A DNA stretch of 64,000 bases from NCBI GenBank assembly GCA_016178625.1, contig JACOSX010000017.1, positions 6,213-70,212 on the forward strand, written 5' to 3'. This document shows, one piece after another, positions 4,996 to 29,237 of this stretch. The DNA comes from Ignavibacteria bacterium (GTDB taxonomy: Bacteria; Bacteroidota; Ignavibacteria; UBA10030; SZUA-254). The notes under the pieces were generated by a model. It saw nothing but the letters and a program-made list of their open reading frames with translations, was not told the DNA's origin and did not search any database. The position numbers and the translations under genes are program-made. Within the stretch, counting starts at the first letter, position 1. Every line of letters starts with the position of its first letter.

Positions 4996-5000
4996 ATTAG

Positions 5001-6912: not shown

Positions 6913-6981
6913 AGGTTTGCTCCTTGGATATTATGGTTAATTGTTGATGGCTTTTCGCCTGTGAATTACTTGAATAGCTGG

Positions 6982-11611: not shown

Positions 11612-11649
11612 TGAAAACCAGGGGCTTCAGCCTGTTTCTCAACTCCAAC

Positions 11650-11681
11650 GTCATGAAAAGCGTTGGAGTTTTATTAACTCC
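11650..11681. terminator. 10-bp perfect hairpin (AACTCCAACG/CGTTGGAGTT) between convergent genes
   Basis: Inverted repeat between the end of the small ORF (+) and the end of the UbiA gene (-). Confidence 0.4.
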
Positions 11682-11684
11682 AAC

Positions 11685-14598: not shown

Positions 14599-14779
14599 AG
14601 CAGGCCCACGGGTGTACTACTATCTGCGTAGAGCCAAATTGGTTCAAGGATCCGATTGACTTGTTGGAAGTCAAACGTGTCGGCGTGAGTGAACATGAGC
14701 GCTTTCCGGATCCTCGAATGGTTGCGAACTTCCTTCAATGGTTTACGTCTGAATTGGTAGGGCATAAAGATTTACATCT

Positions 14780-15250
14780 TTAGCTCTTAGATGAGAGTAT
14801 AGCGATGCCAATGAGTACGCCAAGTGCTATCAGAAGTGCTCGGTCGTTCTCTTTCGCCATCCTGAGACGCTGAAGATAAGAGAGCAATGTCGATAAACTG
14901 CCAGGGGGATTGCCGAAGTCAAATGGGTTGTACTCTCGACCTTGTAGCATCGCTAAGCTTCGATCCGGTATACCAGGTTGAACGAGCGGAATGATCAACT
15001 TACCAGAGGCTTCTGCAAAACCGACTTCTTGTTGAACGTAAGGAGAGAGATGACTGGTAAGCGTGAGAAGAACTACAACCGCATCGGCGACTTGAATGGC
15101 TTGCTTTACCTTTCCAGCGAGTAAGGTTCCGGGCTGCGGATCGTGCTCAAACAGATATGTTTCTATCCCAATGCTTGTAGCATTAGACGCGATCCACTTA
15201 ACCCACTCTGAATCGCTGGCACTGTGACTGAGGAAAACTTTGTAACCCAT
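14780..15250 (-). CDS. TIR-domain protein with a C-terminal transmembrane anchor
   Basis: KVFLSHSASD N-terminal TIR motif and conserved Glu in YVQQEVGFA; C-terminal ALLIALGVLIGIAILSS helix; 156 aa. Confidence 0.7.
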   Translation of the reverse strand: MGYKVFLSHSASDSEWVKWIASNATSIGIETYLFEHDPQPGTLLAGKVKQAIQVADAVVVLLTLTSHLSPYVQQEVGFAEASGKLIIPLVQPGIPDRSLAMLQGREYNPFDFGNPPGSLSTLLSYLQRLRMAKENDRALLIALGVLIGIAILSSKS

Positions 15251-15433
15251 TCGATAAGGGGACCTGTTTTGTTTCGCTAATTATACGGATTGCGACCGCG
15301 AAACGCAAGTGGAGAAACTAGATTTTGAAAAACAGTGACGTTCGAGAGAGTGGGGAATTAGTGCTGTCGCACTCTTAGCAGACGGAAGGCGACATCGAGG
15401 AGTTTAGCTAACCTGTTGGAATGAGTTGAGTGT

Positions 15434-15793
15434 TCAGTACCTCCGTCCACCTGACCTCATAGAACCAAACATCCGCGGGAGAAATCTGGGTCGAAAAGGA
15501 CGATGAATAAAGACCCGCCGATGGAACGGCGTAACAAGCGATACACCGAACCGTCTGCACCCAAATGAAGGACGGTAAAATGGCGCCGGGTAAAAATAAG
15601 GTCTAGGGTAGTATGGCCCCCCACCACCGTAATAGTTATTAATGACCACTTGTTTCGAGGAGTCTTGATCTGTGGAATATTCCTTGGCTTGCGCCAACAT
15701 CACCCCTGAAGCAACGACCCAAATTGCCCCTGCGCTAAACACGAGCAGCATATTCCTTCTCACTTGCATTGCTCTGTTTAATTTGTATTGCAT
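15434..15793 (-). CDS. secreted Gly/Pro/Tyr-rich hypothetical protein
   Basis: Signal-peptide-like N-terminus (likely start at MQVRRNMLL); low-complexity YYGGGGPYYPRPYFYPAPFYRP. Confidence 0.4.
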   Translation of the reverse strand: MQYKLNRAMQVRRNMLLVFSAGAIWVVASGVMLAQAKEYSTDQDSSKQVVINNYYGGGGPYYPRPYFYPAPFYRPSFGCRRFGVSLVTPFHRRVFIHRPFRPRFLPRMFGSMRSGGRRY

Positions 15794-16101
15794 TGTTAGT
15801 CCGTCAAGAATTTCAACAAAAGTCGTGCCGAGAAAATTTTCGATTCATGAGGGGGGCAAAGCGGAATTAGACCAAACAATGCGTGTTAGAGAGAGGACAA
15901 CGCGGAGTGCTGTGTATCAAAAAGGGGACTTTTAGTTTATGGTAAAGTGTGCTGGCTAGACTCACTTGGCTGTCGAAAGATACGGAGAAAAGAAGATTTT
16001 TCAAGGATTGCACGAACCAAAAATGCTGGGGTTCGTTGACGTGAAGTAAGGGAGTGAACGTGTCGCACTATCAGACGGAAAGCGACAGGTAGCTTCGGAA
16101 T

Positions 16102-16452
16102 TCATACGCTCAGTACTTTGATGACAACACTGAGCAGCTCCTCTGGGTCATACGGCTTGGTGATGTAGTCATTCGCTCCAAGCTTTATGCACTCAAGCGC
16201 TGTTGAGATGTCCCGCATCACCGTGAGCATGATTACCCTCGGATGCTTATGAACTTTTTGCATCTCCTTAAGCACGGCCAAGCCATTCATCCGACGCATC
16301 TTCATATCGAGCAAAACAATATCGTAGTCAAGCTGCTTGATTTTCTCTAGGGCAACATCGCCATCATCTGCCACGTCCACCACAAAGTCTTCATTGGTGA
16401 ACTGCTCATAGAGTGACTGTCTCAATTCCACACTATCATCAACCACGAGCAT
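16102..16452 (-). CDS. stand-alone CheY-like response regulator receiver
   Basis: VVDDS...D...LLDMKM...K receiver signature; 116 aa. Confidence 0.8.
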   Translation of the reverse strand: MLVVDDSVELRQSLYEQFTNEDFVVDVADDGDVALEKIKQLDYDIVLLDMKMRRMNGLAVLKEMQKVHKHPRVIMLTVMRDISTALECIKLGANDYITKPYDPEELLSVVIKVLSV

Positions 16453-16522
16453 TTTTGGTTTTACCGTACGACTCTCCGATGGCGTAATGAAACAGAGCTA
16501 TCGTATACTGCCTTCGTTTGCC

Positions 16523-16888
16523 TCACGATGAAATCCGCTCGATTGTTGCCAGGAGGTCCTGGATGTCGTACGGTTTGCTGATAAAATCTTCGGCACCATA
16601 CTGCTTCGCTTCCATGGCTTGTTTGAGGTCAGCAAAAGCGGTCAGCATGATCACCTTCGTCTCGGGGCTTTGCTGCTTGATGAACCTCAGTACCTCCAAG
16701 CCGTCAACCATCGGCATGCGCACGTCGAGGATTGCAAGGTCAAAGTGTTCACCTTGGACGAGGGCTATGGCTTCACCACCACCGGCAGCGGTGGTGACCT
16801 CATAGCCAGCAGCCGAGAGCACGTCGCTCAAGGTACTCCTGATGTTCTCCTCATCATCAACTATGAGGAGGTGAAGGTTGTGAGCCAT
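16523..16888 (-). CDS. stand-alone CheY-like response regulator receiver
   Basis: LIVDDEENIR, ILDVRMP and KP receiver signature; 121 aa. Confidence 0.8.
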   Translation of the reverse strand: MAHNLHLLIVDDEENIRSTLSDVLSAAGYEVTTAAGGGEAIALVQGEHFDLAILDVRMPMVDGLEVLRFIKQQSPETKVIMLTAFADLKQAMEAKQYGAEDFISKPYDIQDLLATIERISS

Positions 16889-17053
16889 CCGTTATTGTTC
16901 GTACTGTCTAGTAAACGATTGGAGAGTGAACGGCATAAAAATACGAAAGAAAGTTACGAATTCCAAGCGATATTTTGTTGCAGACGTACTTTTAAATGGA
17001 AGGCAACAAGAAGGCTCGGAAATTTTCCGAGCCTTCTCCAGTTCATGGGAATA

Positions 17054-17206
17054 CCTCTACTTACCACAGGCTCGATAGTCTGGGCAGGCCGGGGTTCCGC
17101 ACAAGGGACAACCCCCTCGATCAACCTTGGGGCTTGTTCCGGAGAACCCTAACGCAGTGACCACCAGTGCAAGCACGGTAAGCAGCAGCGTGAGTTTCTG
17201 TTTCAT
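17054..17206 (-). CDS. small secreted Cys-rich peptide (50 aa), start overlaps the CsoR-family stop (ATGA)
   Basis: MKQKLTLLLTVLALVVTALGFSGTSPKVDRGGCPLCGTPACPDYRACGK; signal peptide plus CxxC and CxxxxxC; not in the ORF track. Confidence 0.4.
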
Positions 17207-17658
17207 CGTTTCATCTCCTTTCGAGGTTTTGGTTGTTGTACGGCGTTCAGTGAATTACGCAACCAGGCGAGCTCGTCGATGAGCCCCTTGAGATCCAACT
17301 TGGAAAATTCGTGACGTAAAAACTGCAATCGCTCAGCGTCATCGCAGTCCCCAGGACAGAGAGCGAGCCGTTCGGTGAGCACTTCAGCAAAATGTGCCTT
17401 GAGGTGGTCATTCAGGACGACGTAGAGAGCTTGATGGAGCCCTCGCTCAGCAGCTTTGAGTTGTCCATAGATTTCCTTCACTGACCGATCGCTGGTCATC
17501 ATTCGCTCAATGCCGTCGAGCTGACCTTTGACGAAGTGGATACGTTTGAGAAGCTCTCGTTTTTCTTTCTGACCAAGTGGCGGACGATCATTTTTCACGT
17601 TAGCAATGTAAGAACGTACAGGGGTGTTTGTCAAATTCTTAGGTGAAAGGCAACGCAC
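17203..17658 (-). CDS. CsoR/RcnR/FrmR family (DUF156) transcriptional regulator with atypical ligand residues and a C-terminal CPGDC
   Basis: LLKRIHFVKGQLDGIERMM helix typical of the family; the canonical Cys/His ligand positions are not conserved. Confidence 0.55.
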   Translation of the reverse strand: MRCLSPKNLTNTPVRSYIANVKNDRPPLGQKEKRELLKRIHFVKGQLDGIERMMTSDRSVKEIYGQLKAAERGLHQALYVVLNDHLKAHFAEVLTERLALCPGDCDDAERLQFLRHEFSKLDLKGLIDELAWLRNSLNAVQQPKPRKEMKR

Positions 17659-18192
17659 TCAGGCAGGGGCAACAGCGGGGGTAATTGATTTCACAAATGA
17701 GTTCACATCCCCGAGGCAGCATTCGCCCTTGGGATTCTTGATGTCGCAGGCGCAGTTGCCGGCTTTGACTTCTTTAGCAATCTGCAGGGAGGCTGTTGAT
17801 TTTCCTGTGCTGACGAGCTCTTGTTTGATTCGGGCGCGCGTCCAATCGAAGCAATAGCAGACGCTCACATCTTCGCCCTTGTCCTTCGCGAAAGCCTTAA
17901 CCCTAACATCATCGATGGTGAAATATGGAACACTTTCATTGGAGAAGTAGACAACTCTACAGTTCGAATCAGCGCAGTAATAGTATTGCACGTTTTGAAT
18001 TGAGCCAATTTTTTCGGGCTTCAAGAGATGCTCAAGGGTACGCTTTTGTACCTTCTTCGAGACCGTTCGTGAAACCGGACACTGGGCTCGTGCAGGGGCA
18101 GGAGTGGTATCCGTGACTAAACAACACTCATCACCGACTTTATGTTTATCTTCTGCAATTACCTCGATCGGTTGGACGCAGCAGTTATTCAT
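17659..18192 (-). CDS. vicinal-cysteine-rich hypothetical protein (CC, CxxC, CYC, CAC, CC motifs)
   Basis: Starts at MNNCCVQP (internal Met of track ORF 17659..18264), directly after the MerT-like stop. Confidence 0.45.
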   Translation of the reverse strand: MNNCCVQPIEVIAEDKHKVGDECCLVTDTTPAPARAQCPVSRTVSKKVQKRTLEHLLKPEKIGSIQNVQYYYCADSNCRVVYFSNESVPYFTIDDVRVKAFAKDKGEDVSVCYCFDWTRARIKQELVSTGKSTASLQIAKEVKAGNCACDIKNPKGECCLGDVNSFVKSITPAVAPA

Positions 18193-19247
18193 CGTTTTGT
18201 TCCTTTCGTTTGCGGAGAGCAACATTCGGACTTGCTTTTCTCTTTGCTCTCTTTGGAACAACATGCATCTTCATTTCCCGATGGTACACTTTCCCTTTTG
18301 AGTATTTGCAGATCGGGCATATTTCCTTTGCCAAGATACTTTTCACCAGCGGCAACGACATCCCGTTCAATCCGATGGTACAATGAATCATCAAGTTCGT
18401 TGAACGATTGGAGGGACAGGAAGCCGCGTTGGATTATCGCTTTGACATCTTCACGAAACGCCTGCTTGTCTTCGCCCGTTTTGAACTTAACATGTGGACT
18501 AACGCCCGTGAGAATCCGGTCAGCGATAACGCCCGCTTCCTCAATACTCAGCGCATCAACGTCTGAACCTTTATACCACATATCCTTCGCTTTGAAGTCC
18601 TCGAGAAGGGTAGTTCGATCCTGCTCACTTACTTGCTCAATCGGTAGTTCATGTCGAGAGAACACCGACTTGAGCACCGTTTGGTGTGCTGTGGCACTCG
18701 TGCCTTCATTCCATACCACAGCCATGACGGTTCCCCGCCGGTTCAGCCAAGCTCCTTTCACGGTTGAGTCTTTCATGAGATCAAGCAAGATGAACTTTGC
18801 CCTGCTGCCACAACCGATACTCGGCGCGGCATTACACACCAGAGGCACATCGAAGAAGCTAATGTCCCGGTCAAGGATCAGGGAACTGTTCTCGGAAGGC
18901 TTCGACGGTGAAGATGACGCTGTGAATCCAAAATATGGAAAGGCGATTGCGCCGGCCGCAACAAGAGTTGCGCACCACACGCCGATTTTGTTCCAGAGGC
19001 TGGAACTTTGAACCTTGCAGCTCCCGTCTTCACACTTCACCTCGCGTTTACGATAGGCGAAGTAGAACGCAAGACCGAGAAGAAGTACCGTAAGACCGAT
19101 CAGGTATGAGCGGTAAGGTTCAAGCATGGAAAACAGGCCGATACTACCAACCCCGATCAGTGCCAACGCCACGGGTCCGATACAACACAGGGACGCAATG
19201 ATTGCGGCAATTACTCCACCCGTGCTTGAGAAGGTTGCTTTACTCAT
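18189..19247 (-). CDS. MerT-like membrane transporter fused to a C-terminal domain ending in paired CC motifs
   Basis: First TM carries SLCCIGP (MerT-type vicinal Cys), the loop has CEDGSC, and three TM helices are followed by a soluble domain with CC...CC. Confidence 0.55.
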   Translation of the reverse strand: MSKATFSSTGGVIAAIIASLCCIGPVALALIGVGSIGLFSMLEPYRSYLIGLTVLLLGLAFYFAYRKREVKCEDGSCKVQSSSLWNKIGVWCATLVAAGAIAFPYFGFTASSSPSKPSENSSLILDRDISFFDVPLVCNAAPSIGCGSRAKFILLDLMKDSTVKGAWLNRRGTVMAVVWNEGTSATAHQTVLKSVFSRHELPIEQVSEQDRTTLLEDFKAKDMWYKGSDVDALSIEEAGVIADRILTGVSPHVKFKTGEDKQAFREDVKAIIQRGFLSLQSFNELDDSLYHRIERDVVAAGEKYLGKGNMPDLQILKRESVPSGNEDACCSKESKEKSKSECCSPQTKGTKR

Positions 19248-19264
19248 ATCCTATATTCTTTCAT

Positions 19265-19654
19265 TTAGTGTAACAGGGCTTGTTCTGTTGTTTCTTTTGC
19301 GGTGAACATCTTCAACAAGGCTTTGGTAAGTGTACGCTCCACCAAGGAGTAAAATATGGTTTGTCCTTCGCGACGTGCGGTCACGAGCTTTTTGTCTTTG
19401 AGTCTACGGAGGTGTTGAGACACAGCGGAATCAGTGATCTCCAACACTTCGGCGAGATCGCACACGCACATTTCCCGATGGGCATGAAGGAGATAGAGGA
19501 TACTAAGCCTCTGCGGATTCCCTACCGCAGAGAGGAGATCCGCCAAAGTGTGCAATGGTTTTTGTTGTGCAAGATTTCGTTTGATGAGGAGCAGCTCAGC
19601 CTGCGAAAACGTTGGACCAACACAGAGCTTGCCGTCGATGTAGATTTTCTTCAT
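19265..19654 (-). CDS. ArsR/SmtB family metalloregulator
   Basis: CVCDLAEVLEITDSAVSQHLRRL metal-binding and HTH signature. Confidence 0.8.
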   Translation of the reverse strand: MKKIYIDGKLCVGPTFSQAELLLIKRNLAQQKPLHTLADLLSAVGNPQRLSILYLLHAHREMCVCDLAEVLEITDSAVSQHLRRLKDKKLVTARREGQTIFYSLVERTLTKALLKMFTAKETTEQALLH

Positions 19655-19668
19655 GATTTGATGAGTTA

Positions 19669-19697
19669 ATAGTTTAGTTACTGCTTAAATACTAAAC
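19669..19697. promoter_or_regulatory. inverted repeat GTTTAGT-N11-ACTAAAC upstream of the ArsR start (candidate operator)
   Basis: Palindrome 15 to 45 nt upstream of the arsR-like ATG. Confidence 0.3.
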
Positions 19698-19804
19698 AAT
19701 ATATGAACCAGAAAGTTCCAAATCAAGTTGCAGACCCGGTCTAAAACGAGGTTGCGAAAGTAGAAAAGCGGTCGTCTTCTTAGATGGAAGAAGACAGAGA
19801 AGGA

Positions 19805-19872
19805 AACAAAAAACCCGCTTCGGGAGGCAGCTCCAGGCTGGGGGAGGCGCCAGCCTCGGAACTAAAGCGGGT
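19805..19872 (-). terminator. long GC-rich hairpin plus T-run (minus strand)
   Basis: ACCCGCTT...AAGCGGGT outer stem with inner AGGCTGG/CCAGCCT; rc is followed by TTTTTTGTTT. Confidence 0.5.
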
Positions 19873-20020
19873 ATGAAAAGATATGAAGTCTTCTTTACAA
19901 AGTCAAACTGTGAATACTCCTCATCCTCGCTGGACTCCATTGAACCCTTGAGTCCAGCGAGGCATATTTGGTAAGGGCTTAGGCCCTCGGGCAGAGCCAG
20001 AAAACAAAAAGGCCGGCGAT

Positions 20021-20056
20021 GGGCCGACCTTTTCCTTGATACTGTGACCCTTCATC
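20021..20056 (-). terminator. Rho-independent terminator of the BNR/T9SS gene
   Basis: GGCCGGC..GCCGACC hairpin flanked by A-run/T-run about 40 nt past the stop. Confidence 0.5.
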
Positions 20057-20092
20057 ATGAAGTGGGATTCAGGGCGAACCGCCAAAGGTGCA

Positions 20093-23000
20093 TCACTTCA
20101 TCAACAGTAACTTCTTGGTAGCCTGATATGTCTGCTTGCCCGATCCATCGGTAACATTCATCCTGACGTAGTAGATGCCGCTCGATGAACTTCCAGCGTC
20201 CCAAGTTGCGTTGTAGAACCCTGCATCGAGTTCCGCTTCCACGAGGTGAGCCACCTCCTCGCCGAGCACGTTGTACACGCCCATACGCACAAGCGCGGGC
20301 GTTGCGAGCTGATAAGAGATAGTTGTGACCGGATTGAACGGGTTGGGATAGTTTGCATTAAGTCTCGTTTCTGTTGGTAGCGGGAGTTCATTTCCTTCAT
20401 TCCCATCTCTTCGTTGCTTCGTCACGACCGGTCCAGAGCCAGAGTTCACTGATATAATGTTAGAGTTTGGAGAGCTCTGGCAGAAGTTATCAAGAGCGGC
20501 AACGTAGTACGAGAAAACCGATGTTGGAGTAAGATTTCCAGAAGTTTTCTGGAAGACCGTGATGTCGTGGTCGGTGTAGCTTGTGTTTGGACCAGTGAAA
20601 ATGAGTGAGGCAGCTGGTTGACATTCGGTACTCGCCCACGGGCACGAGTATCGCCACAGTTGGTAGGACAACGCTCCAGCCACCGTCGTCCAGCTGAGCG
20701 TCGGATTAGTCCCGGGTGCGCACGCACTGCACGAAAGCATTGGCGCGGGCAGTAGATCCGGAGAGATCGAGGGAAGCTGAATATTCTTGATCCTGAACGG
20801 CGGGCCGGTGGCATCCACGTATTCAACGTAACGATCATCCTGACTATTAAACGTCGTGGTAATGCTGGCTTGACGACCGGTCGCATCAAGAACACCGGGA
20901 AGACTCCAGGTGTTGTGATATTGTGCCCACGATGTTCCATTGTTTGCGCTGTACCAAACGAGCGCGAAGTCGTTACCCTTCGTCGACGAGGATCGGTAGT
21001 CAGTGATGGTCGGTGAGTAAGGGTAATTCGGGGTGCCGGAACAATTCGAAAAGGTGTAGTTGTACACTACATCTGCGAGCGTTGTACCAGCTCGCTGCTG
21101 CACTTTGATATTCCCCTGTGATATCGAGACGTCGCGATATTCCCATGCTATCGTAACTCTGTTGGATACGTCCACGGCAAGAGACGGTCTTGCGTTGGTG
21201 AGAATGCTTGAATTGCTGGCAACGGTGAACGGTCCATACCAGGTGATATTCGAAGCCTGAACAGCGGCGGAGTTGGGTAAATAGCCGAGCATGTACTTGA
21301 TGCCTCCCGTCGACCCTCGTACTTCCCATGCCAGGTAGAAGAGATAGCCCTTGCCGCCATCCGGTCCCGGACCGGTCGTGACGGCGAAGGTTGGATTTGT
21401 CGCTCCGACCCCCGGTGTGAGTGCGAGGTTGGTAAAGGCGTTGAAGGGATAGGCGCTCACCCCATACTTTAAGCCCACATCTTTATCACACCACACCGCC
21501 GCGAATATCGAGGAGACGGTCGGTCCGGTTTGCGGCTTCGTCATGACACCGACAGGCATCGACTGGAAAGAACTGTCCCCGGAAAAATAGCCGAGTTGTA
21601 AAACATTACCAGGACTCTTTTCCCAGAAAATGGTGTGGATGCCAACGCTGAGATCGGGATACTGCACCTGATCGTACAATTTGGATACGGTTACTCCTAC
21701 AGAGTCGCCCACGAGTGCCGGGTTGCGATAGATGATGGTCGATGTGGGGTAATCGCCCACGACAGTTTCGGGAGGCCAGGTGAATCCGTAGGTGTAAAAT
21801 ATTGTGCCTGCGCTTTCATACACCACGTGGATGCCTGTAGTCGTCTGCACAACTCTTCTCTGACCGGTCGGTGAGAGCGCAGCCAGTGTTGAGGTGCCTA
21901 AGTGCGCTTTGTACTGAGCCTTCGCATACATGAGATTTACCGGATCGCGGAAAATGACCGGTCCGCTTGCGCCACCCAGTGGGACGTCTGCGCCGATACC
22001 GATCCATTTGATGAAGTAAGAATCGAAACCCCCTATTGGCTGGGTTGAAAGGGCTTCAACTTCATAGAATGGCTTTAAGGGTTTATTTGGATCTGGCTCT
22101 TCTCCCAAGAACACTCCCTTGTAATCCGTCGTATGATCTCTCAACTTAAAAGGCGAGCCAAGAGGGTTCCGCGGTGCGCTCCCTCCCTGGTTCCGCGCGT
22201 TACTGCCGTAACTCGGGTCGTTAAAATCTATCAACCACGGATCTTTAAACTTGATCGTTCCCCCTTCAACCGCAGGCGCATCGATGAGCTCGTTGCGAAT
22301 AATCGTGTTGGCGTTTGAATATGATGAGATCGACTTGAAGTTGGACCTAAACGTATTTGTTTGTGCTGTAATCGGAAAAGCATGATGGTTGACCACGTCA
22401 GGATCGGTATTCCACCTGTTGTATTTCTCCGATCCCGAGACGCCCCCGAGCACGTCCTGAGTGCCTCGCAGCACCTCGGTGGAGGTCGGATTAACCGCAA
22501 AGATCGCTTGCTGAGATTGTGTCAATGTGAAGCTATAATTGTTGTAATCAGTATTCCAGAGTCCGGTGAACGAGCTTCCGTTCCAGCGCTTGGGTGTGTC
22601 ATACGTGAGATCCCCGCTGCTGAATATTTGATCGATGGTGGCGAGGATCGTGCTATGCTGCGCAAGGTAAATCCACTGATGCACCACGCCGCCTCCGTCA
22701 GTGCGTCTATCCGTCCAAACGGGGTACGCCATCTTGTTTGTTGCGGCAATACCGATGTAATCCCCCATCCTGGGGTTCGCCATTCCTAACGTGGACGTGG
22801 CAGAACTGACTTTCGCGTGGGTAAATGTTTTGCCCCGATCCGCGGAGGCTGCCACGAAGACGTTAACGGTGGTATCACCGGGAAGCACACCGTAGTACGC
22901 TACATACACCTTCTTGCCGTCCGGACTGACACTGACACGCGGAGCCCAAAATTTACCAGCCACGTTGTTTAGCCTCCGAAGCGGCCCTGTGAAGTCATAT

Positions 23001-23965
23001 CCCGTGCCATACGTCTGTGAGCTGGCAAAATAAATGTTTGGACCGCCGGTTCTATTGTCTGCCCATGCCATATACAGGTAGTCAGTTGTTCTGTCGATCG
23101 CGCAAGACGGATAGCTATTCACCTTGAGCGTGGAATTACCGATAGTGATAGAATTCACCTCTGAGATACCTTGTATCACGGCGCTCGCACCACTGGAGAA
23201 TGTTAGTCGATCCGTCGATAGGTTGAGCCTGATATTACCACCCGACTCAAACCATAACACATACACATAGCCCGAGCTGCGAACCACTATCGAAGGTCCC
23301 TTCGAGTCCACGGCGTCGTTGTAGCTGATCTTCAGTGGTGTTGTGAATGTTAAGCCACTCGGACCGTAGGTATCTGTTGCATAACAGATTTGACTCTTTG
23401 TGCCGTTATTAAATTTCTTCGTCCATGCGGTAAAAATCCCGTTCGTTGATCCCGTTGCCAGAGTAACTTCATCTTCAAAATCAGTTCCCCCGGAGGGCGA
23501 GTTGTGATCAACCACCGTGAAGAGATCGGGCCACGTCGCACCGTTGTTGACGGATCGCGCTGCGAAAATACCATTTTTGTCAAATTTGTTCGCCGTGTCG
23601 TATGAAACAAATGCATACCACGCTTCGCCGTTGTTTGCTGCAAAGGCGACCTGCGGTCGAGCGCTGAAGCTGCCATGAGGATTGTACCCCAGTGCATATT
23701 CGGTCCAACTGGCTCCTCCATCAACAGAGTACGAATAGTGAAGTTGTTCTTCACCGTTATTAAACTTCTCCGATCCGACGGCGAGCTTGCTCGAATCGTT
23801 CGGATTCACAGCGATGGTCGGATTCCACCACCAATAGATTGAATTGTCGTGACCGACGACCACGTTGGTGGGTTGAGCGATTACCTTAGATTGCACACTG
23901 AGCATGATGAATACAAGGACCACAAGCTCAACGAGCAGCATGCACTGAGTTCGAACGCGTATCAT
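20093..23965 (-). CDS. BNR/Asp-box repeat secreted protein with a T9SS C-terminal sorting domain
   Basis: Signal peptide; SxDxGxTW-like boxes (SVDGGASWT, SVNNGATWP, SADRGKTFT); C-terminus NYPNPFNP...GIYYVRM...KKLLLMK. Confidence 0.75.
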   Translation of the reverse strand: MIRVRTQCMLLVELVVLVFIMLSVQSKVIAQPTNVVVGHDNSIYWWWNPTIAVNPNDSSKLAVGSEKFNNGEEQLHYSYSVDGGASWTEYALGYNPHGSFSARPQVAFAANNGEAWYAFVSYDTANKFDKNGIFAARSVNNGATWPDLFTVVDHNSPSGGTDFEDEVTLATGSTNGIFTAWTKKFNNGTKSQICYATDTYGPSGLTFTTPLKISYNDAVDSKGPSIVVRSSGYVYVLWFESGGNIRLNLSTDRLTFSSGASAVIQGISEVNSITIGNSTLKVNSYPSCAIDRTTDYLYMAWADNRTGGPNIYFASSQTYGTGYDFTGPLRRLNNVAGKFWAPRVSVSPDGKKVYVAYYGVLPGDTTVNVFVAASADRGKTFTHAKVSSATSTLGMANPRMGDYIGIAATNKMAYPVWTDRRTDGGGVVHQWIYLAQHSTILATIDQIFSSGDLTYDTPKRWNGSSFTGLWNTDYNNYSFTLTQSQQAIFAVNPTSTEVLRGTQDVLGGVSGSEKYNRWNTDPDVVNHHAFPITAQTNTFRSNFKSISSYSNANTIIRNELIDAPAVEGGTIKFKDPWLIDFNDPSYGSNARNQGGSAPRNPLGSPFKLRDHTTDYKGVFLGEEPDPNKPLKPFYEVEALSTQPIGGFDSYFIKWIGIGADVPLGGASGPVIFRDPVNLMYAKAQYKAHLGTSTLAALSPTGQRRVVQTTTGIHVVYESAGTIFYTYGFTWPPETVVGDYPTSTIIYRNPALVGDSVGVTVSKLYDQVQYPDLSVGIHTIFWEKSPGNVLQLGYFSGDSSFQSMPVGVMTKPQTGPTVSSIFAAVWCDKDVGLKYGVSAYPFNAFTNLALTPGVGATNPTFAVTTGPGPDGGKGYLFYLAWEVRGSTGGIKYMLGYLPNSAAVQASNITWYGPFTVASNSSILTNARPSLAVDVSNRVTIAWEYRDVSISQGNIKVQQRAGTTLADVVYNYTFSNCSGTPNYPYSPTITDYRSSSTKGNDFALVWYSANNGTSWAQYHNTWSLPGVLDATGRQASITTTFNSQDDRYVEYVDATGPPFRIKNIQLPSISPDLLPAPMLSCSACAPGTNPTLSWTTVAGALSYQLWRYSCPWASTECQPAASLIFTGPNTSYTDHDITVFQKTSGNLTPTSVFSYYVAALDNFCQSSPNSNIISVNSGSGPVVTKQRRDGNEGNELPLPTETRLNANYPNPFNPVTTISYQLATPALVRMGVYNVLGEEVAHLVEAELDAGFYNATWDAGSSSSGIYYVRMNVTDGSGKQTYQATKKLLLMK

Positions 23966-24043
23966 TACGACCTCCTATATAGTGAACCCGCCAGAGAGGC
24001 GGGTGAATAGAACGTGTGAATTAAAAGTTCTCAATTCCAATGA

Positions 24044-25354
24044 TTACCGATACCCTCGCAGCACTACCGCACGATTACCAACTTGACCGACAGCAACGAC
24101 AAAATTTCCTTGGGTTTCAACTCGAAACAATGATCCGTTGATGTATGTCTCAGCTTGATAGTTTTTCCAGGAAGAACCATTGTAATGGAGGGTGACACCG
24201 TAAGCTCCTACGACAACAATGTCATTGCTGGCGTTTCCACGCACCGCATTGGTATAATAGGTCGTCAAGCCAAAATGCAATGCTCGCCATGGTGTTGTTG
24301 CATTCAGGTATGATTTAAAGAAGATACCATCACCGACGATATAATTTCTATAGACAGATGATGACCAGAGCCCGTGTAAGCTCCAGGGAAGCCCATTGTC
24401 GGGAAGAAGTGCAACATTTCCACTGTCGATCTCCAAGACCTTCGGCCCTTCACCAGTGTAGATATTGGATGCAACAGCAAGGATCTTATACTTACCGGAT
24501 CGAGAATCCCTGGTTCCATAGATGTCTTGAATATCGTACGTTGTTCCGCTTTCAAGCTTCTGCCAACGGGTGGCGTCGTAATGTGTCAAAGAACCACTTG
24601 AGCCGACAAGGTAGAAATTACTATCCGAGGATCCCCACATTTTGTCGATACTACCTGACCGTTCTGAGATCCAGCGACTGGACCATGTCAGTCCATTCCA
24701 CCGCCCAACAGCACCAACATCAGATGAGATCCAAATATCACTTTTGCTGAATGCAAAAATCGATGTCAAGGGAGTTACAATAATTCGTCCATCATATGTA
24801 ATGGTCTGGATTTTCAGAAGCTCCCAGGCACTCCCATTCCAGTGGGCTGCATTGTACGGAGGAAAAATGAAATGTCCAGTAGAATCTAATGTGTAAATTT
24901 CCCCGACAGCCCACACATCCGTCGGTGAGATGATCGCCACATCTCTCAAGTTACTCGAATTGCCAACACCGAGCGTATCCATCTGCCAGGTAAAGTTGTG
25001 GCTCGTGGTATCAAGTGTCGTCACCACAAGTGGTGCATCAGCAGGAACAAAGTTGCCATTGAATTCTTGCATCAGTTGATACGTGTATGTTTGTTTAGGA
25101 AGGAGCCCTCCATCCACCACAACGGTATCAATCGGTGCGGTAGCGGTGAAGATAGTTTGACCGTCTCGGGAGACTCTCAGGGGAGTGCTTGAGCGCAGTA
25201 TCGGTGTAACGTTTATGTGAAGGACAAAATCAATCGCACCAACGTCTTCTGTCGTGAGATGGGAAAATGGGATGGACGGTCCTGTTGGACTCTTCGTACA
25301 AGCAAAGCCACAGATGAGAATTGCACAGCAAACAACGACGGTGAGAATTCGCAT
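24044..25354 (-). CDS. hypothetical secreted/lipoprotein with beta-propeller-like repeats
   Basis: Signal peptide with Cys; recurring W/Y-rich repeat units. Confidence 0.45.
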   Translation of the reverse strand: MRILTVVVCCAILICGFACTKSPTGPSIPFSHLTTEDVGAIDFVLHINVTPILRSSTPLRVSRDGQTIFTATAPIDTVVVDGGLLPKQTYTYQLMQEFNGNFVPADAPLVVTTLDTTSHNFTWQMDTLGVGNSSNLRDVAIISPTDVWAVGEIYTLDSTGHFIFPPYNAAHWNGSAWELLKIQTITYDGRIIVTPLTSIFAFSKSDIWISSDVGAVGRWNGLTWSSRWISERSGSIDKMWGSSDSNFYLVGSSGSLTHYDATRWQKLESGTTYDIQDIYGTRDSRSGKYKILAVASNIYTGEGPKVLEIDSGNVALLPDNGLPWSLHGLWSSSVYRNYIVGDGIFFKSYLNATTPWRALHFGLTTYYTNAVRGNASNDIVVVGAYGVTLHYNGSSWKNYQAETYINGSLFRVETQGNFVVAVGQVGNRAVVLRGYR

Positions 25355-25517
25355 GTGAAATGATCTTATCGTTGTGATAGTGTAGAAAGATTTTAATTTA
25401 GAATCAAGATATTTTTCGTGATCGGGTAAGATTTATTTTGTCAACTCCCACGTTTTACCCGTTTCACCTTGGGGAGTGATGTAATGTACGCCACTCCCCA
25501 GCTTGACTAACGAGAAC

Positions 25518-26252
25518 TCAGTACACCTTTTTCTTCTTGATCTCCTCAGCCTGCTTCTTGACGAGCTTCATCTCCTCAGGATCGAGGTAGTTCCAGGCTG
25601 CCTGCATGACCTTGGTATAGATTGCTTCTAATTTAGGTCCGAGTACCTTGGTGATACCCGCGTCGTTGGGGTCTACACCGTTCGGTGGGGCCGGGTATTC
25701 CTTTTCACCTTCCCAGGAGACAACTTCGCGCGGAATGTCGATGCTCTTAAACCACATGCGCTCTTTCGACAGGCTCTCCGTCAGCGCGAGCGTGATCCTG
25801 CCACCAATGGCGGCTTGACCGTTGAGCGTGTAGCTGTCCGGTCCCAAGATGCCGACGTGCTTCCTCGCTTCGGGATTGACAATGTCCAGCCGTACGTCGA
25901 GCGTCGGTTGCAGGACGAGGTCGCTCCCCTTCTTGTCGGGAAAGGTGAGCTCGTCGTACGAACCGAAAGGACCCTTGACCGTGAAGCCGCGTGCGCTCAA
26001 GATCTGTTGGAAGTCCAAGCCCATGTTCTTGGAGAAATCGGTGAACGGCCAGACGGTTGTCCACGGTTGGTTCTCAGAGTACGAGGCATTGACAACGGCA
26101 AAGGTAACCTCGGCTGAGGCTACGGGTGCATTGGCCGTAGGTGTGAAGTGGAACGACGGCACGTAGGCCTGTTCGCTCTTGGTTGCCTTGGGCGCGCAGC
26201 CGATAAAACCGACCGTCAGGCAGAGGGTGGTAACGTAGAAGAAGTGCTTCAT
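25518..26252 (-). CDS. hypothetical lipoprotein
   Basis: Likely start MKHFFYVTTLCLTVGFIGC (lipobox); track ORF extends to 26324. Confidence 0.45.
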   Translation of the reverse strand: MKHFFYVTTLCLTVGFIGCAPKATKSEQAYVPSFHFTPTANAPVASAEVTFAVVNASYSENQPWTTVWPFTDFSKNMGLDFQQILSARGFTVKGPFGSYDELTFPDKKGSDLVLQPTLDVRLDIVNPEARKHVGILGPDSYTLNGQAAIGGRITLALTESLSKERMWFKSIDIPREVVSWEGEKEYPAPPNGVDPNDAGITKVLGPKLEAIYTKVMQAAWNYLDPEEMKLVKKQAEEIKKKKVY

Positions 26253-26307
26253 GATACAACCTCCTATGGAGTTGTGAATGATGGATAGTGAATTAGGTAG
26301 AAACGAA

Positions 26308-26342
26308 AAAACCTCTTCCAGCACAATGGCTGACAGAGGTTT
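26308..26342 (-). terminator. hairpin AAACCTCT/AGAGGTTT followed by a T-run on the minus strand
   Basis: rc reads stem-loop then TTTTTTCGTTTC; it lies upstream of the lipoprotein gene start, so it would end a minus-strand transcript coming from the recombinase upstream region. Confidence 0.4.
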
Positions 26343-26404
26343 CTATATTCACTGGCCGACTCACCAATAGAAACCCCGGTAGCAAGCGTGCTGGGGTCTA
26401 TCTG

Positions 26405-26532
26405 ATTGCCAAACCAGTATAGATCATCCCGTACGTATTTGCGTACCGGGGCACAATGTCGTGCCCCAGCGCGTTGCCAACGTACGGGGAGAACCCTATA
26501 AAATAAAAAACGATCTACTACTGGTTTGGCAA
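26405..26532. repeat. nested palindromic element: 14-bp outer IR (TTGCCAAACCAGTA / TACTGGTTTGGCAA) enclosing GTACG/CGTAC and GGGGCAC/GTGCCCC hairpins
   Basis: Read directly from sequence, about 110 bp upstream of the serine recombinase start. Confidence 0.6.
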
Positions 26533-26644
26533 AAATAAGGTAGGAAGAAATTCGCAATGAGTCAAGTTTTTTCTTGGTGAATGAAACTTTTATTCTTACC
26601 TTTGATGAGTATCATTTCCACAAATTGTCCTGAGGAGTATTCAG

Positions 26645-28138
26645 ATGGAGAAAGAAAAATCGGTCGGTATTTGGATTAGAGTCTCGACAGAAGATCAAGC
26701 CAGAGGTGAAAGCCCGGAGCATCACGAGAAGCGCGCCCGCTACTACGCGGAATCGAAGGGATGGTCTATCAAAGAAGTCTATCGTCTTGAGGCGGTTAGT
26801 GGTAAGTCGGTGATGGAACATCCCGAGACGAAACGGATGCTGGCTGACGTACGATCGCACAAGATTACAGGAATTATCTTTTCCAAGTTGGCACGATTAG
26901 CTCGTAACACAAGAGAGCTTCTGGACTTCGCCGATATCTTTCGTGAATGTGACGCAGACCTAGTAAGTTTGCAAGAATCGATTGACACTTCAACCCCAGC
27001 TGGACGGCTCTTCTATACTATGATTGCTGCTATGGCGCAGTGGGAGCGAGAAGAAATAGCGGAACGTGTAGCAGCGTCAGTGCCGATACGTGCCAAGCTT
27101 GGCAAACCCCTCGGAGGTGCTGCTCCGTTTGGATACCAATGGGTAGACAAAAAACTGCTGATTGATCCAAAGGAAGCTCCGGTACGAAAACGAGTCTACG
27201 AACTATTCCTTGAACATCGACGCAAGAGAACGGTCGCCCGTCTACTGAACGAATCAGGATATCGCACCCGGAATGGTGGCCGGTTCTCGGATACCACAGT
27301 GGATCGTCTCTTGCGTGATCCAGTAGCCAAAGGGAAACGCCGAATGAACTATACGAAGAGCTTGGGACAGAAGAAAAAATGGATCATAAAGCCTGAGGAC
27401 GAATGGGTACATATAAATGTTGAGCCGATTGTGAGCGATGAGGTATGGGCACACTGCAACCAAATCCTGGGTGAACAATACCAAAAGCAGAATCGGCGCC
27501 CGGCTGAACACCTTTTTACCGGTATAGTGCTCTGTCACTGCGGTAACAAAATGTACGTCCCACACAAATCGCTGAAGTACACGTGCTACAAATGCCACAA
27601 TAAAATCCCCACCTCTGACTTGGAAGGGATATACCATGAGCAACTGAAAACGTTCTTTTTTTCAAATGACGAAATTTCAACTTACCTGAATAAGGCTGAT
27701 GAACTTATAAATGATCGGCAAAATCTATTCGTTTCACTTGAGGAGGAAGCCAAGAGGCTAAAGCGAGAGATGGACAAGTTGGTCCGACTACACCTTGATG
27801 GAGAGATGCCTAAAGAGGGATTCGGGAACCACTACCGGCCGCTGGAAGACAGGCTGAAACAAATAGAGAATCAACTCCCCGAACTGCAGGGTGAGATCGA
27901 TTACCTCAAAATCCAGTATCTATCAAGCGACGAGGTACTTAGCGAGGCTAAGGATCTACATCAGCGATGGCCTACACTCGAACTTTCTGAAAAAAGAAGT
28001 ATCGTAGAAACAATCACCCAAAAAATAACTATTAGCAATGACGAGGTTTCAATCAATCTATCGTACATGCCATCCTCGGCAGAAATGGCAACAGAAATGC
28101 AACACAACGTCAGGGATTCATTGCACACACCAGCATGA
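26645..28138 (+). CDS. large serine recombinase (resolvase/invertase catalytic domain, recombinase domain, zinc ribbon, coiled coil)
   Basis: [11 protein letters not shown] catalytic-Ser motif, CHCGNKMY...CYKCHNK zinc ribbon; 497 aa; 3' end overlaps the comM remnant. Confidence 0.85.
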
Positions 28139-29171
28139 AGTTGGCTGGATAATCGATCGACATTTTCGACCGGCTGATCGTAACGTGAGCATCCTCCAGA
28201 GGTTGACGAAGAACTTCGAGGACGTTGCGGGCGAATTCCGGAAGCTCATCGAGAAATAACACGCCATGGTAAGAAAGAGAAATCTCGCCCGGTCGAGGCA
28301 CTGTTCCACCGCCGACAAGAGCGCTATCGGAGATTGTATGATGCGGAGAGCGGAATGGACGCGTTGAGATCAGCGCTGAGTCGGGCGGCAACAGACCGGC
28401 GACAGAATGAATCTTGGTTGTCTCAATCGCCTCGTCAAATGTGAGAGGGGGGAGAATGGTTGGCAAGCGTTTGGCAAGCATAGTTTTCCCGGACCCGGGC
28501 GGACCGATCATGATGATGTTATGTCCCCCTGCAGCAGCTACCTCCAGAGCGCGCTTCACATTCTCCTGTCCTTTGACATCGTCAAAGTCGATTGGATATC
28601 GCTGATCCTGATTGAACACTTCACGGAGATCAACACGAAACGGCTTGAGCATTGTGTGTTCGCCATTGAGGAAGGAGACCGTTTCAACAAGAGACTCCAT
28701 CGGATAGACTTCAAGTTCTCCGACCATCGCCGCTTCCTTCGCGTTCTCTCGTGGAACGATCATGCCGCGGATGCCATTCTTTCTTACCTCAACCGCGATC
28801 GGCAGGGTTCCATGCACGGGGCGGAGAGTGCCGTCGAGAGCGAGTTCCCCGAGCATGACGAAGTCTTTCAATATGTCGGGAAGTACTTGGCCTGTCGCCG
28901 CGAGAATACCAACGGCGATCGGGAGATCGAACGCCGAGCCTTCTTTCTTAATGTCGGCAGGCGCGAGGTTCACCGTGATGCGTTGACCCGGAGGGAATCG
29001 AAAGCCTGTTGTTTTAATGGCTGCATAGACGCGATCGCGGCTCTCCTTCACGGCATTATCCGGCAATCCAACAACATTAAACGCATTGCTGGATGCCACA
29101 ATGTGTGTCTCTACCTGAATGAGATGTGCCTTGATGCCTATTGTTGAAGCGCTGAGTGCGTGAGAAAACAT
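28110..29171 (-). pseudogene. comM: comM/yifB Mg-chelatase-like AAA+ gene, truncated after the ...LVCAMNP sensor motif (C-terminal third missing)
   Basis: N-terminal [21 protein letters not shown], Walker A GPPGSGKT, Walker [10 protein letters not shown]; ends at AMNP, where full-length ComM continues with a Cys-rich region. Confidence 0.7.
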
Positions 29172-29237
29172 AGGAACAATTCCTCCCGGAAGTTCTTTCA
29201 ACATACGGAACGGATGAATGAACTGCAACTCGAAAAA

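Follow-up and report, generated by a model that had tools for sequence, protein, structure and literature searches.

A comM/yifB homologue in an Ignavibacteria genome ends after residue 353, at the point where its reading frame meets that of a large serine recombinase (LSR). What cut this gene, and how was the recombinase involved? By the window we mean the whole 64-kb stretch of DNA that was analysed. The comM/yifB ORF in it (28110..29228, minus strand) matches the Pfam families ChlI (7e-46) and Mg_chelatase (2.5e-75, profile positions 1-158 of 207). Its true start is most likely MFSHAL at 29171, and the product from there is database protein P0001 (MBI1805664.1, 353 aa). As the first-pass annotation had it, this protein is intact from its N-terminus through the Walker A and B motifs and ends in ...FMLVCAMNP, after which comes a TGA stop at 28110..28112. 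Uninterrupted ComM relatives (512-517 aa) read on as ...AMNP-CPCGYF..., and the truncated protein is without the last ~160 residues, which include the CPCG motif and the Mg_chelatase_C lid. As the C-terminal third is gone after residue 353, ComM is presumably inactive. Of the 120 top-ranking ComM homologues, about 11 stop at this residue too.

The LSR ORF converges with comM from the other strand, and the last 29 nt of the recombinase ORF overlap the end of comM (28110..28138), also as first annotated. The LSR matches the Pfam families Resolvase (PF00239, 8e-31 over residues 9-151) and Recombinase (PF07508, 2e-20) and, weakly, Zn_ribbon_recom (PF13408, 21.2 bits, under the cut-off of 25.3). 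Its PHROG match is an integrase (1e-110), and it holds the catalytic motif IRVSTEDQ. The closest solved chain is the catalytic domain of the TP901-1 integrase (1e-19), and residues 149-471 show a weak match to the C-terminal domain of the A118 integrase, and visual inspection of the sequence suggests a coiled coil. The element encodes residues 1-489 and part of codon 490, whereas the final seven codons and the stop (28115..28138) derive from host comM, read in antisense. The C-termini of LSR relatives follow the pattern QRN[FL][RMTK][DG]S..PA, directly before the stop. A 14-nt inverted repeat lies at 26406..26532. In five relatives the DNA preceding the LSR gene was searched for a shared operator-like repeat, and none was found; no recombination directionality factor was identified.

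The LSR belongs to a very large family, with 824 related cluster representatives at E<=1e-30 and at least 559 relatives in JGI metagenomes, from which 80 loci were fetched. In 59 of these 80 loci the LSR abuts an antisense comM that ends at residue 353. LSR identity at these loci is 63-72% and ComM identity to the window is 43-91%; the latter range means that many host lineages are involved. The identical target position is thus used by independent, divergent relatives, and L003, a 793-kb Ignavibacteriales contig, carries a related element whose overlap is likewise 29 nt. Together with the window these loci provide 60 junctions, all of which fall at the same comM codon and have the same central CA core. 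This reveals that the comM break resulted from site-specific LSR integration, with the element to the left, as the first-pass annotation had proposed, and that a single conserved site serves the LSR family in many phyla. The truncation point shared by these junctions and by the ~11 homologues above is not due to chance.

We defined the P, P', B and B' arms and the core from the 60 junctions, six attP forms and eight attB sequences. On the element side, the consensus gGCAACgCAACnt directly precedes the core in 60/60 LSR-comM junctions. This P' arm, whose motif occurs once in the window, recurs in inverted orientation as the P arm at comM 3' junctions and as the second arm of the attP palindromes. 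On the host side, the B arm has the consensus gGGaTTCATgGC..AGCATgAA. The attP palindrome GGCAACRCA-N4-CA-N4-TGYGTTGCC, with CA at its centre, is present in five loci of relatives (L091, L093, L122, L161 and L167), and the palindrome doubles as coding sequence for the protein motif GQRN-x-x-PALP. Alignment of attB with the DNA of N-side and C-side junctions shows P and P' as inverted repeats around TG, and a reconstituted attP would read GCAACACAACGTCA followed by the P arm. The truncated comM takes the first two bases of its TGA stop from the TG core and the third from the element (base 28110). The junction had been placed at about 28110..28138, which is where the two ORFs overlap, but the crossover itself is the 2-bp core at 28111..28112 and not the 29 nt. 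Comparison with uninterrupted comM, which the first-pass annotation had suggested, thus yields an attB of ...AMNP/CPCG... (the slash marks the crossover) and a TG core. These sites have the form seen in serine integrases: short imperfect inverted repeats, a non-palindromic 2-bp crossover, and an attP and attB that are alike in little beyond the core. The features of the locus are listed in Table 1.

Table 1. Features of the comM-inserted element and its junction, by position in the window unless another contig is named.
Feature	Position	Strand	Remarks
CBASS-type cyclase	L002 2720..3643		just left of the window
Visible integrated element	1..28112		left end open
LexA/CI-like S24 repressor	242..961	-	regulation/defence block 242..4829
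AEP-primase-like	1402..2067	+	regulation/defence block
M78/CapP-like peptidase	2209..3147	-	regulation/defence block
HD/dGTPase-like	3144..4829	-	regulation/defence block
DUF932	5580..6545	-	backbone module 5580..10877; Pfam
PD-(D/E)XK/Cas4-like nuclease	6982..7794	-	backbone; Pfam
142-aa ORF	7751..8179	-	backbone
T4CP/HerA-like ATPase	8339..9664	+	backbone; PF10412 2e-13
SymE-like	9961..10422	+	backbone; Pfam
RadC	10419..10877	+	backbone; Pfam
UbiA and 286-aa ORF	11685..13377		cargo block 11685..26324; Pfam, PADLOC
ThsB-like TIR	14780..15250		cargo; Pfam, PADLOC
Response regulator	16523..16888		cargo
Metal module CsoR/CopZ-zf/MerT-like/ArsR	17203..19654		cargo
1290-aa T9SS-sorted protein	20093..23965		cargo
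436-aa ORF and 268-aa putative lipoprotein	24044..26324		cargo
Large serine recombinase (LSR), integrated truncated form	26645..28138	+	497 aa; Pfam, PHROG, motif
Element-side half-site (P' arm)	28088..28110		conserved arm GCAACACAAC at 28099..28108
Crossover dinucleotide	28111..28112		CA on +, TG in comM sense; first two bases of Cys354 codon
Host-side half-site (B arm)	28113..28138		comM codons ...FMLVCAMNP antisense; aligns with uninterrupted comM of relatives (attB)
comM/yifB 5' part	28110..29171	-	353 codons; ChlI domain, Walker A, Walker B

The missing part of comM had been expected to the left of the window, beyond position 1. A tblastn search with the C-terminal part of a full-length ComM as the query indeed found no comM 3' part in the 64-kb window, and a fragment that fits was found in the same MAG (MBI1805487.1), but it sits on another, 25,110-bp contig. 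The fragment shares its accession series with the LSR and comM of the window (MBI1805663/4.1). It begins MTTQP/CLCG..., that is, at the codon complementary to the comM break and after a translated attP arm (MTTQP). We infer that the two comM halves, placed on different contigs of one MAG, are physically linked; the far junction is on a separate contig, and bins can mix strains. Among the loci fetched from relatives, no matched pair of junctions of a single element was found. One candidate for a two-junction element (L133) was rejected, as its P arm is joined to non-comM DNA and its LSR is broken. The proteins P0152 and P0329 lie on contigs of the same length (20,277 bp), which yielded no junction pair; the stretch around P0152 (L168) has a frameshifted double-HTH remnant beside a comM 3' fragment, without an LSR. 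P0231 and P0175 represent far ends only.

Towards the left, a stretch (L002) overlaps window positions 1..3408 at 99.97% identity, and the overlapping contig JACQEU010000224.1 extends the element by at least 3,785 bp beyond the window. This gives an element of at least 28.1 kb in the window and at least 31.9 kb with the overlapping contig. L003 and 20 of the 80 metagenome loci have homologues of the backbone genes upstream of their LSR. The cargo block, except for the UbiA pair, is missing from the related element in L003. As the shared backbone genes lie beyond them (5.6-10.9 kb), the metal operon, the TIR gene and the T9SS genes are cargo. The overall layout given in the first-pass annotation is therefore borne out: the recombinase lies left of the junction, its end abutting the comM 5' part, with the mobile-element genes leftward of it, a minimum length of 28 kb, and the metal operon, TIR gene and BNR/T9SS gene as cargo. 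Two cut ORFs to the left of the window (712 aa and 166 aa) were considered as counterparts of the 1021-aa ATPase and 168-aa ORF that lie beyond attP in L091, and were rejected as they do not match. Relaxase or T4SS domains were found neither among the 24 ORFs of the window nor around attP in L091 and L167; of the genes that would mark an ICE or IME, the visible part holds the T4CP/HerA-like ATPase alone, and others may lie in the unseen left part. Very probably, then, we are dealing with an integrative genomic island of at least 32 kb that carries defence and metal-homeostasis cargo and was inserted into the comM/yifB gene of this Ignavibacteria genome by its own LSR.

Next, we focused on the recombinase gene itself. 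In six unintegrated copies (L091, L093, L122, L159, L161 and L167), the attP palindrome lies within continuous ORFs of 632-651 aa that contain two HTH_3 domains. When the window LSR is fused in silico with the comM 3' junctions found at L014a, L014b, L060 and L170, the ORFs are likewise in frame, with lengths of 611-644 aa. The junction motif QRN[FL]xPALPFC... occurs in 33 of the best 120 homologues of the fused ORF; about 47 of the 120 are fused in all, while about 66 of 70 short ones end in a comM-antisense tail. A search with the 497-aa window LSR had nine cluster representatives of 602-674 aa among its 12 best (eight of them 627-674 aa), and the match of the long representatives to the window LSR ends near residue 490. 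These reading frames place attP within the recombinase ORF in relatives, where integration severs a C-terminal double XRE-type HTH, and the window element would have been cut in the same way. The double-HTH tail is absent from the window, and the far end of the element probably carries it. The severed tail has no conserved start codon and may be silent in the integrated element. Some fused genes lie on contigs of 170-206 kb, which means that a fused gene does not always represent an excised circle; no terminal overlap was found in any of the small attP-form contigs that were checked for circularity. A truncated protein that is 96% identical to the fused protein of L091 (P0256) was rejected as an att event, as it is a chimera with another recombinase.

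We propose the following course of events. The LSR would recombine its palindromic attP with the comM codons of attB (...AMNP/CPCG...) at the 2-bp core TG (28111..28112). Integration would truncate ComM after residue 353 and would also cut the recombinase gene, as attP would lie in the LSR ORF. The unintegrated gene is predicted to encode an LSR of ~630-650 aa, of which the last ~140 residues are two XRE/Cro-type HTH domains. The integrated enzyme would consist of ~490 residues and a 7-residue host-encoded tail, and the HTH-coding piece would stay at the far end of the element, adjoining the comM 3' part.

Could the island be more than a passenger? Several elements are known to interrupt a gene reversibly (regulated gene integrity), such as phi10403S in Listeria comK, and skin and SPbeta in sigK and spsM of B. 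subtilis. An equivalent, 'active lysogeny'-type switch would make the island a reversible comM interruption, whose precise and conditional excision restores ComM. In candidates for such regulation, including Listeria comK with its A118-like prophage, a serine-integrase element inactivates a conserved gene, as here, and excision would restore it; yifB is itself listed as a candidate from TIGER mapping (Mageeney et al. 2020, PMC7192596). Neither comM half carries stops or frameshifts, and neither shows an excess of altered invariant positions (1/125 in the 5' part against a control mean of 1.3, and 2/71 in the 3' fragment of the same MAG against a control mean of 0.5). Neither the LSR ORF nor the P' arm is damaged, and LSR excision at a 2-bp core would be seamless. 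However, a recent insertion predicts an equal lack of decay, and no directionality factor or inducing signal was identified. Moreover, mobile elements often disrupt competence genes merely to block their own removal by transformation, as the enrichment noted in PMC10083194 indicates. On balance, we consider a switch of this kind rather doubtful.

We also find it unlikely that the LSR-inserted island is now an immobile, domesticated fossil. Its large host-like cargo (T9SS-sorted proteins, a lipoprotein and a metal operon) would fit such a state, as would the two altered positions in the comM C-terminal fragment. Decayed remnants of the same family are also common, consisting of a truncated double HTH, the P arm and the comM 3' part with the rest deleted (L019, L085, L168 and L171/L172). 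Against this, the LSR has the full length of the integrated form and its catalytic motif, its half-site fits the family consensus, the backbone genes are intact, and near-identical copies of the element sequence are present in two other assemblies.

A temperate phage is a poorer explanation still. The model for it is the sr1WO group of Wolbachia phage WO, whose LSR integrates into the Mg-chelatase gene so that the gene halves flank the element (Bordenstein & Bordenstein 2022, PMC9203015). Phage WO also bears HTH_XRE regulators and a RadC-like gene near its recombinase-distal end (PMC9203015), and our element encodes an S24 repressor of the CI/LexA type, and several of its backbone proteins belong to PHROG families. 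However, phage WO has a tail and a eukaryotic association module. In the visible ~32 kb, by contrast, Pfam and PHROG searches found no domain of a capsid, portal, terminase or tail protein, nor did the 20-kb stretches around attP in L091 and L167 contain any. No LSR relative was found in IMG/VR, and the best LSRs of cultured phages are ~30% identical. A recombinase-HTH_XRE fusion across attP is not described for WO. Finally, chance adjacency of a decayed comM paralogue and an unrelated recombinase gene, for which nothing speaks beyond the far junction being off this contig, is refuted by the 60/60 junctions at one codon with one core, by the complementary comM 3' fragment in the same MAG, and by the match of the half-site to the attP palindromes, and can be set aside.

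The preferred reading, an LSR-inserted genomic island, makes this comM insertion an ordinary case of a well-documented habit of serine-integrase elements. The novelty that the first-pass annotation implied does not hold, as insertions of this kind are documented (PMC9203015, PMC7192596, PMC10083194). According to Durrant et al. (2022, PMC10083194), 12.4% of predicted site-specific LSRs target Mg-chelatase/comM homologues, a larger share than for any other reported LSR target, and competence genes are enriched among LSR targets. The elements described there resemble ours in having the LSR at the element edge, site-specific insertion within a ComM-type coding sequence, and divergent LSRs that share the target, and differ in host phylum, which here is Ignavibacteriota. 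Neither an attP in the LSR ORF nor a C-terminal double-HTH extension is mentioned in the available part of PMC10083194. ComM-type targets are probably preferred because disabled transformation protects the element. In Acinetobacter, AbaR/Tn6022-type islands also interrupt comM, with reduced transformation as the likely benefit (PMC11472951). Unlike the serine-recombinase element of the window, those islands are Tn7-like transposons with Tns proteins and a target duplication, and they use another site in comM.

How might the loss of the double-HTH tail matter? With the tail, the free state would differ from the integrated one in the recombinase or in how it is regulated. We prefer to read it as an extra sequence-specific DNA-binding module of the free form only, which may serve autoregulation or add contacts to attP. 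A fused directionality factor, as in engineered integrase-RDF fusions, was judged unlikely: only the free form carries the fusion, and this form has to integrate, a step that a directionality factor would block. In the integration-dependent immunity of mycobacteriophages such as BPs, attP lies in a regulatory gene, and the free and integrated proteins differ in their C-termini and behaviour. The LSR family appears analogous in having attP in a gene and different C-termini in the two states, but in BPs-type phages the repressor is split and the integrase is a tyrosine recombinase, whereas here the serine recombinase itself would be split. Similarly, archaeal integrases of the SSV ('suicidal') type have their site within the integrase ORF, which is split by integration and restored by excision (PMC7253208). 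The LSR family has attP in the integrase ORF as well, and so, by extension, would the window copy. SSV integrases, however, are archaeal tyrosine recombinases that enter tRNA genes and are destroyed by the split, whereas the split of this bacterial serine recombinase removes an accessory C-terminal DNA-binding tail alone and leaves the catalytic, recombinase and putative zinc-ribbon/coiled-coil parts intact. The likeness to SSV, drawn by analogy, is one of logic and not of membership. Tentatively, the self-splitting integrase gene could act as a functional sensor of the integration state, in which the free LSR-double HTH (Cro/CI-type) and the integrated, tail-less LSR differ in regulation, att-site choice or directionality. 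If that possibility, which we hold with reserve, were to prove correct, the family would provide a counterpart, among bacterial serine recombinases, to SSV-type integrase partition and to integration-dependent immunity. In the literature searched, without this amounting to proof of absence, we found no description of an LSR with attP in its own ORF or of an LSR-HTH fusion.

Our analysis extends the pattern of comM-targeting LSR elements to Ignavibacteriota and defines the att sites and TG core for a very large LSR family. It also provides signatures of island boundaries in MAGs, namely a 'recombinase' of ~500 aa as opposed to ~640 aa, and 'ATP-binding protein' fragments that start with MATQPC. 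What appears to be newly revealed is that integration also splits the gene of the recombinase. Should the severed double-HTH tail matter, the family would possess a natural, state-dependent switch on a serine integrase, and such a switch, if true, would be of interest for studies of recombination directionality and for integrase engineering.

The comM ORF of the window ends in ...FMLVCAMNP, followed by TGA, and its end overlaps that of the convergent large serine recombinase (LSR) gene by 29 nt, exactly as the first-pass annotation had described; ORF calls, domain searches and tblastn agree on this. The protein read from the MFSHAL start is P0001 (MBI1805664.1), encoded on an 81,426-bp contig of the Ignavibacteria MAG. 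Uninterrupted ComM relatives (at most 87% identity) are 512–517 aa long, and AMNP there runs on into CPCGYF.... A tblastn search of the 64 kb for the comM C-terminal part, with the final 161 residues of an uninterrupted relative as query, found no match. The same truncation point recurs in about 11 ComM homologs from different assemblies among the 120 closest, and a 793-kb Ignavibacteriales contig (L003) carries a truncated comM and then a 497-aa recombinase, 89% identical to that of the window, with the same 29-nt overlap. One truncated ComM (P0029) ends in ...CAMNPCPRGFMF, three codons beyond the usual break, and a neighbouring site may have been used there by a different element or junction.

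Features of the comM junction and of the inserted element (window coordinates)
Feature	Position	Strand	Remarks
LexA/CI-like S24 repressor	242..961
CapP-like M78 peptidase	2209..3147
dGTPase-like HD protein	3144..4829
Regulators	0.2–4.8 kb		LexA/CI-like S24 repressor, AEP-primase-like, CapP-like M78 peptidase, HD protein
UbiA-family prenyltransferase and domain-less ~286-aa ORF	11685..13377
ThsB-like TIR	14780..15250
Cargo	11.7–26.3 kb		UbiA pair, ThsB-like TIR, response regulator, CsoR/CopZ/MerT-like/ArsR module, T9SS-sorted proteins
Backbone	upstream of recombinase		DUF932, PD-(D/E)XK, 142-aa ORF, T4CP/HerA-like ATPase, SymE, RadC
Inverted repeat, 14 nt	26406..26419 and 26519..26532		TTGCCAAACCAGTA / TACTGGTTTGGCAA
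LSR ORF, 497 aa	26645..28138	+	Resolvase and Recombinase domains, weak zinc-ribbon match
comM/yifB 5' part	TGA at 28110..28112, likely start (MFSHAL) at 29171	-	ChlI and Mg_chelatase domains
Crossover core, TG in comM sense	28111..28112		60 junctions compared
Host comM DNA inside recombinase ORF	28113..28138		last seven codons (DSLHTPA) and stop

JGI metagenomes contain at least 559 relatives of the recombinase. We fetched 80 metagenome loci with recombinase identities of 63–72%, and in 59 of these the recombinase gene extends into a comM 5' part that lies antisense and ends at residue 353. ComM in these loci is 43–91% identical to that of the window, so the hosts belong to many lineages; the source names of related proteins include Planctomycetes, Scalinduaceae, Aerophobetes, Deltaproteobacteria, Chloroflexi and Armatimonadetes. 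The core CA (TG in comM sense) is identical in all 60 junctions, window included, and is flanked in them by a conserved element arm gGCAACgCAACnt and by comM antisense sequence gGGaTTCATgGC..AGCATgAA.

In comM sense, the window junction reads ...gcaatgaatccc TG acgttgtgttgcatttc, the attB of an uninterrupted relative ...gcaatgaatccg TG tccatgcggatattt, and the comM 3' junctions of other Ignavibacteria genomes ...gaaatgcaacgcaaccc TG tttctgcgg. The 3'-side element arm repeats, in inverted orientation, the arm that adjoins the window's recombinase, and the stop codon of the truncated comM consists of the TG core and one element base. The recombinase gene lies away from comM in six loci (L091, L093, L122, L159, L161 and L167). 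In five of them (L091, L093, L122, L161 and L167), the joined arms form the palindrome GGCAACRCA-N4-CA-N4-TGYGTTGCC, which is how a serine-integrase attP with a 2-bp, non-palindromic crossover is expected to look. The palindrome of L159 (4679..4704) has a central GA instead of CA, and this locus may be a variant with another crossover dinucleotide or another target. [quoted passage not shown]

A ComM C-terminal query retrieved many ORFs of 160–180 residues that start with MATQPC(P/L/F)CG..., where MATQP is the translated P arm, an element half-site of attP. One of these, P0128 (167 aa, MTTQPCLCGYF...), corresponds to MBI1805487.1, encoded on a 25,110-bp contig of an 'Ignavibacteria bacterium' MAG, and it shares its accession series with the window recombinase (MBI1805663.1) and comM (MBI1805664.1). 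The comM 3' fragment on which the first-pass annotation had staked its reading thus exists, but on a different contig; together with the core shared by 60 of 60 junctions, it supports a serine-recombinase-mediated insertion in comM. At comM positions that do not vary among 74 intact relatives, the window 5' half has 1 change in 125 (control mean 1.3) and the 3' half from the same MAG 2 in 71 (control mean 0.5). Neither half has an excess of such changes, and the split is either recent or reversible. Many displaced comM 3' fragments (P0122–P0182; L014, L019, L168, L171) have C(L/F/M)CG directly after the crossover, unlike intact comM genes, which mostly have CPCG; this may be a difference in the B' half-site (a comM half of attB) or relaxed selection.

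The recombinase ORF of the six attP-form loci passes residue 490 and continues through the palindrome for ~140 codons more, which gives proteins of 632–651 aa. This extension carries two HTH_3 (XRE/Cro/CI-type) domains (the dHTH tail), whose nearest solved relatives are 434 repressor, HigA2 and controller C protein. Directly next to the P arm at comM 3' junctions, the opposite strand carries a dHTH-encoding ORF, of which L014 (twice), L060 and L170 have intact copies and L019, L085, L168 and L171/L172 decayed ones. Joining the window recombinase in silico at the core to four intact far ends (the element ends next to the comM 3' part) gave in-frame ORFs of 611–644 aa. Of the 120 best homologs that a fused ORF retrieved from the database, about 47 have the fused form (627–707 aa), 33 of them matching the junction motif ...QRN[FL]xPALPFC..YP..L.TLGDHxRKxR..., and about 66 end in ...QRN[FL][RMTK][DG]S..PA*, the comM antisense tail; the sequences of fused and comM-tailed homologs part exactly at the core. 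The two forms are interleaved, as the fused L091 protein has its closest relatives among truncated proteins (89–92% identity) and is about 72% identical to other fused ones. A search of 1.84 billion cluster representatives with the 497-aa window protein returned proteins of 602–674 aa in nine of the 12 best matches (627–674 aa in eight), with alignments stopping near residue 490, which indicates that the ~640-aa form is the family's full-length gene. The recombinase gene is, by these comparisons, cut by integration into comM.

No copy of the dHTH tail or of a second arm was found in the window, and the severed tail of its element would lie beside MBI1805487.1. Severed tails usually lack their own Met codon, and their translation is probably confined to the unintegrated form, within the recombinase. 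Because the start codon is missing, they are easily overlooked; the intact dHTH ORF by the comM 3' fragment of L170 (9511..10000) is uncalled in the public annotation. In L060 (9633..10007) and in attB of L005 and L008, the Pro355 codon CCA (TGTCCATGC) gives an antisense in-frame ATG two codons before the core, a host-derived start for the severed dHTH ORF (MDIPALP...) that is not conserved across hosts. Three fused LSR-dHTH genes (P0266, P0267, P0280) are on contigs of 170–206 kb, some binned as Patescibacteria, so the unsplit gene is not limited to small excised circles. The recombinase of L166 (620..3120) has 96% identity to the L091 enzyme and turns, partway through the gene, into a different recombinase (RD and zinc ribbon); this gene is a recombinant or an assembly chimera.

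L019 (8945..14952) and L034 (4131..11275) contain an intact comM and, 4–5 kb downstream, a second complete 3' part preceded by a P arm, in L019 also by what is left of a truncated dHTH; three other genomes (L007, L011, L059) have partial extra 3' copies. An intact comM with a displaced junction is unexplained by simple LSR integration or excision. L014 (819..10531; JAWOKN010000182.1) has two complete far-end junctions 8.8 kb apart, each consisting of a dHTH ORF, P arm, TG and comM 3' part, and between them lie large T9SS-type genes and neither a recombinase nor a comM 5' part.

Positions 1..28112 of the window lie between the two comM halves. A contig of another assembly (L002, JACQEU010000224.1) overlaps window 1..3408 at 99.97% and reaches 3,785 bp further left, adding DUF2188, a CBASS-type cyclase, a 166-aa ORF and a cut 712-aa ORF. 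The element, earlier put at 28 kb or more, is therefore at least 31.9 kb. Its backbone genes also precede the recombinase in L003, as they do in up to 20 of the 80 metagenome loci. Beyond its recombinase, L003 has UbiA with a 287-aa ORF, two RadC genes, a 142-aa ORF and a PD-(D/E)XK nuclease, a content that is the window backbone minus most of its cargo. The metal operon, TIR and T9SS genes, previously proposed as cargo, fall within the cargo region, most of which is missing in L003. Relaxase, T4SS, capsid, portal and terminase genes were not seen in the window or its extension, nor around attP in L091 and L167, no recombinase relatives were found in IMG/VR, and the best matches among cultured phages and plasmids are ~30% identical. 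We therefore call the element an integrative island rather than an ICE, IME or prophage.

The CapP-like peptidase and the S24 repressor are clustered at the left of the visible element, together with the CBASS-type oligonucleotide cyclase (L002 2720..3643); a ThsB-like TIR and a dGTPase-like HD protein are also present. The attP neighbours in relatives (L091, L167, L170) include Thoeris-like TIRs, SLATT, QueC/TGT, RM and ubiquitin-like (Bil-type) genes. The comM-targeting island family is a carrier of defence genes. The UbiA pair is kept in the window and in L003 (15498..17190), two elements that otherwise differ in load. The arms of the perfect inverted repeat 5' of the recombinase gene are 99 nt apart, and the repeat is not conserved in the four relatives compared.

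The comparisons show a serine integrase family specific to one comM site with a TG crossover, a palindromic attP within the integrase ORF, and two recombinase isoforms that match the unintegrated and integrated states. From what is known of the family, ComM cut after Walker B, with its C-terminal lid gone, would be inactive, and transformation would thereby be impaired. The integrated 490-residue enzyme would retain all core LSR domains and need a directionality factor for excision, upon which both comM and the long recombinase gene would be restored. A fused directionality factor is an unlikely role for the dHTH tail, because only the form that must integrate carries the fusion. We favour an extra sequence-specific DNA-binding module that the free-form enzyme alone would carry, with a possible role in autoregulation of the element or in additional contacts close to attP.

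The first-pass annotation had implied that a serine-recombinase ICE/IME in comM might be new for an FCB-group genome; this novelty finds no support, since such targeting is reported in three sources. According to PMC10083194, 12.4% of predicted site-specific LSRs have Mg-chelatase/ATP-dependent-protease homologs as their target, and competence genes are enriched among LSR targets. Wolbachia phage WO sr1WO inserts into a Mg-chelatase gene, and its group has HTH_XRE and RadC-like genes at the recombinase-distal end (PMC9203015); yifB is on a candidate list for regulated gene integrity (PMC7192596). Tn7-like AbaR islands also sit in comM, by a different mechanism (PMC11472951). The insertion is therefore a known habit in a new phylum, and there is nothing unusual about the element as such. 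Its attP-in-ORF design is similar to that of SSV-type archaeal tyrosine integrases (PMC7253208) and to mycobacteriophage integration-dependent immunity; enzyme class, split-off part and host domain are all different. The literature searched contained no serine integrase of this design, which does not prove that none has been described. The cut in the recombinase gene is real and extends across the family, and it may merit follow-up.
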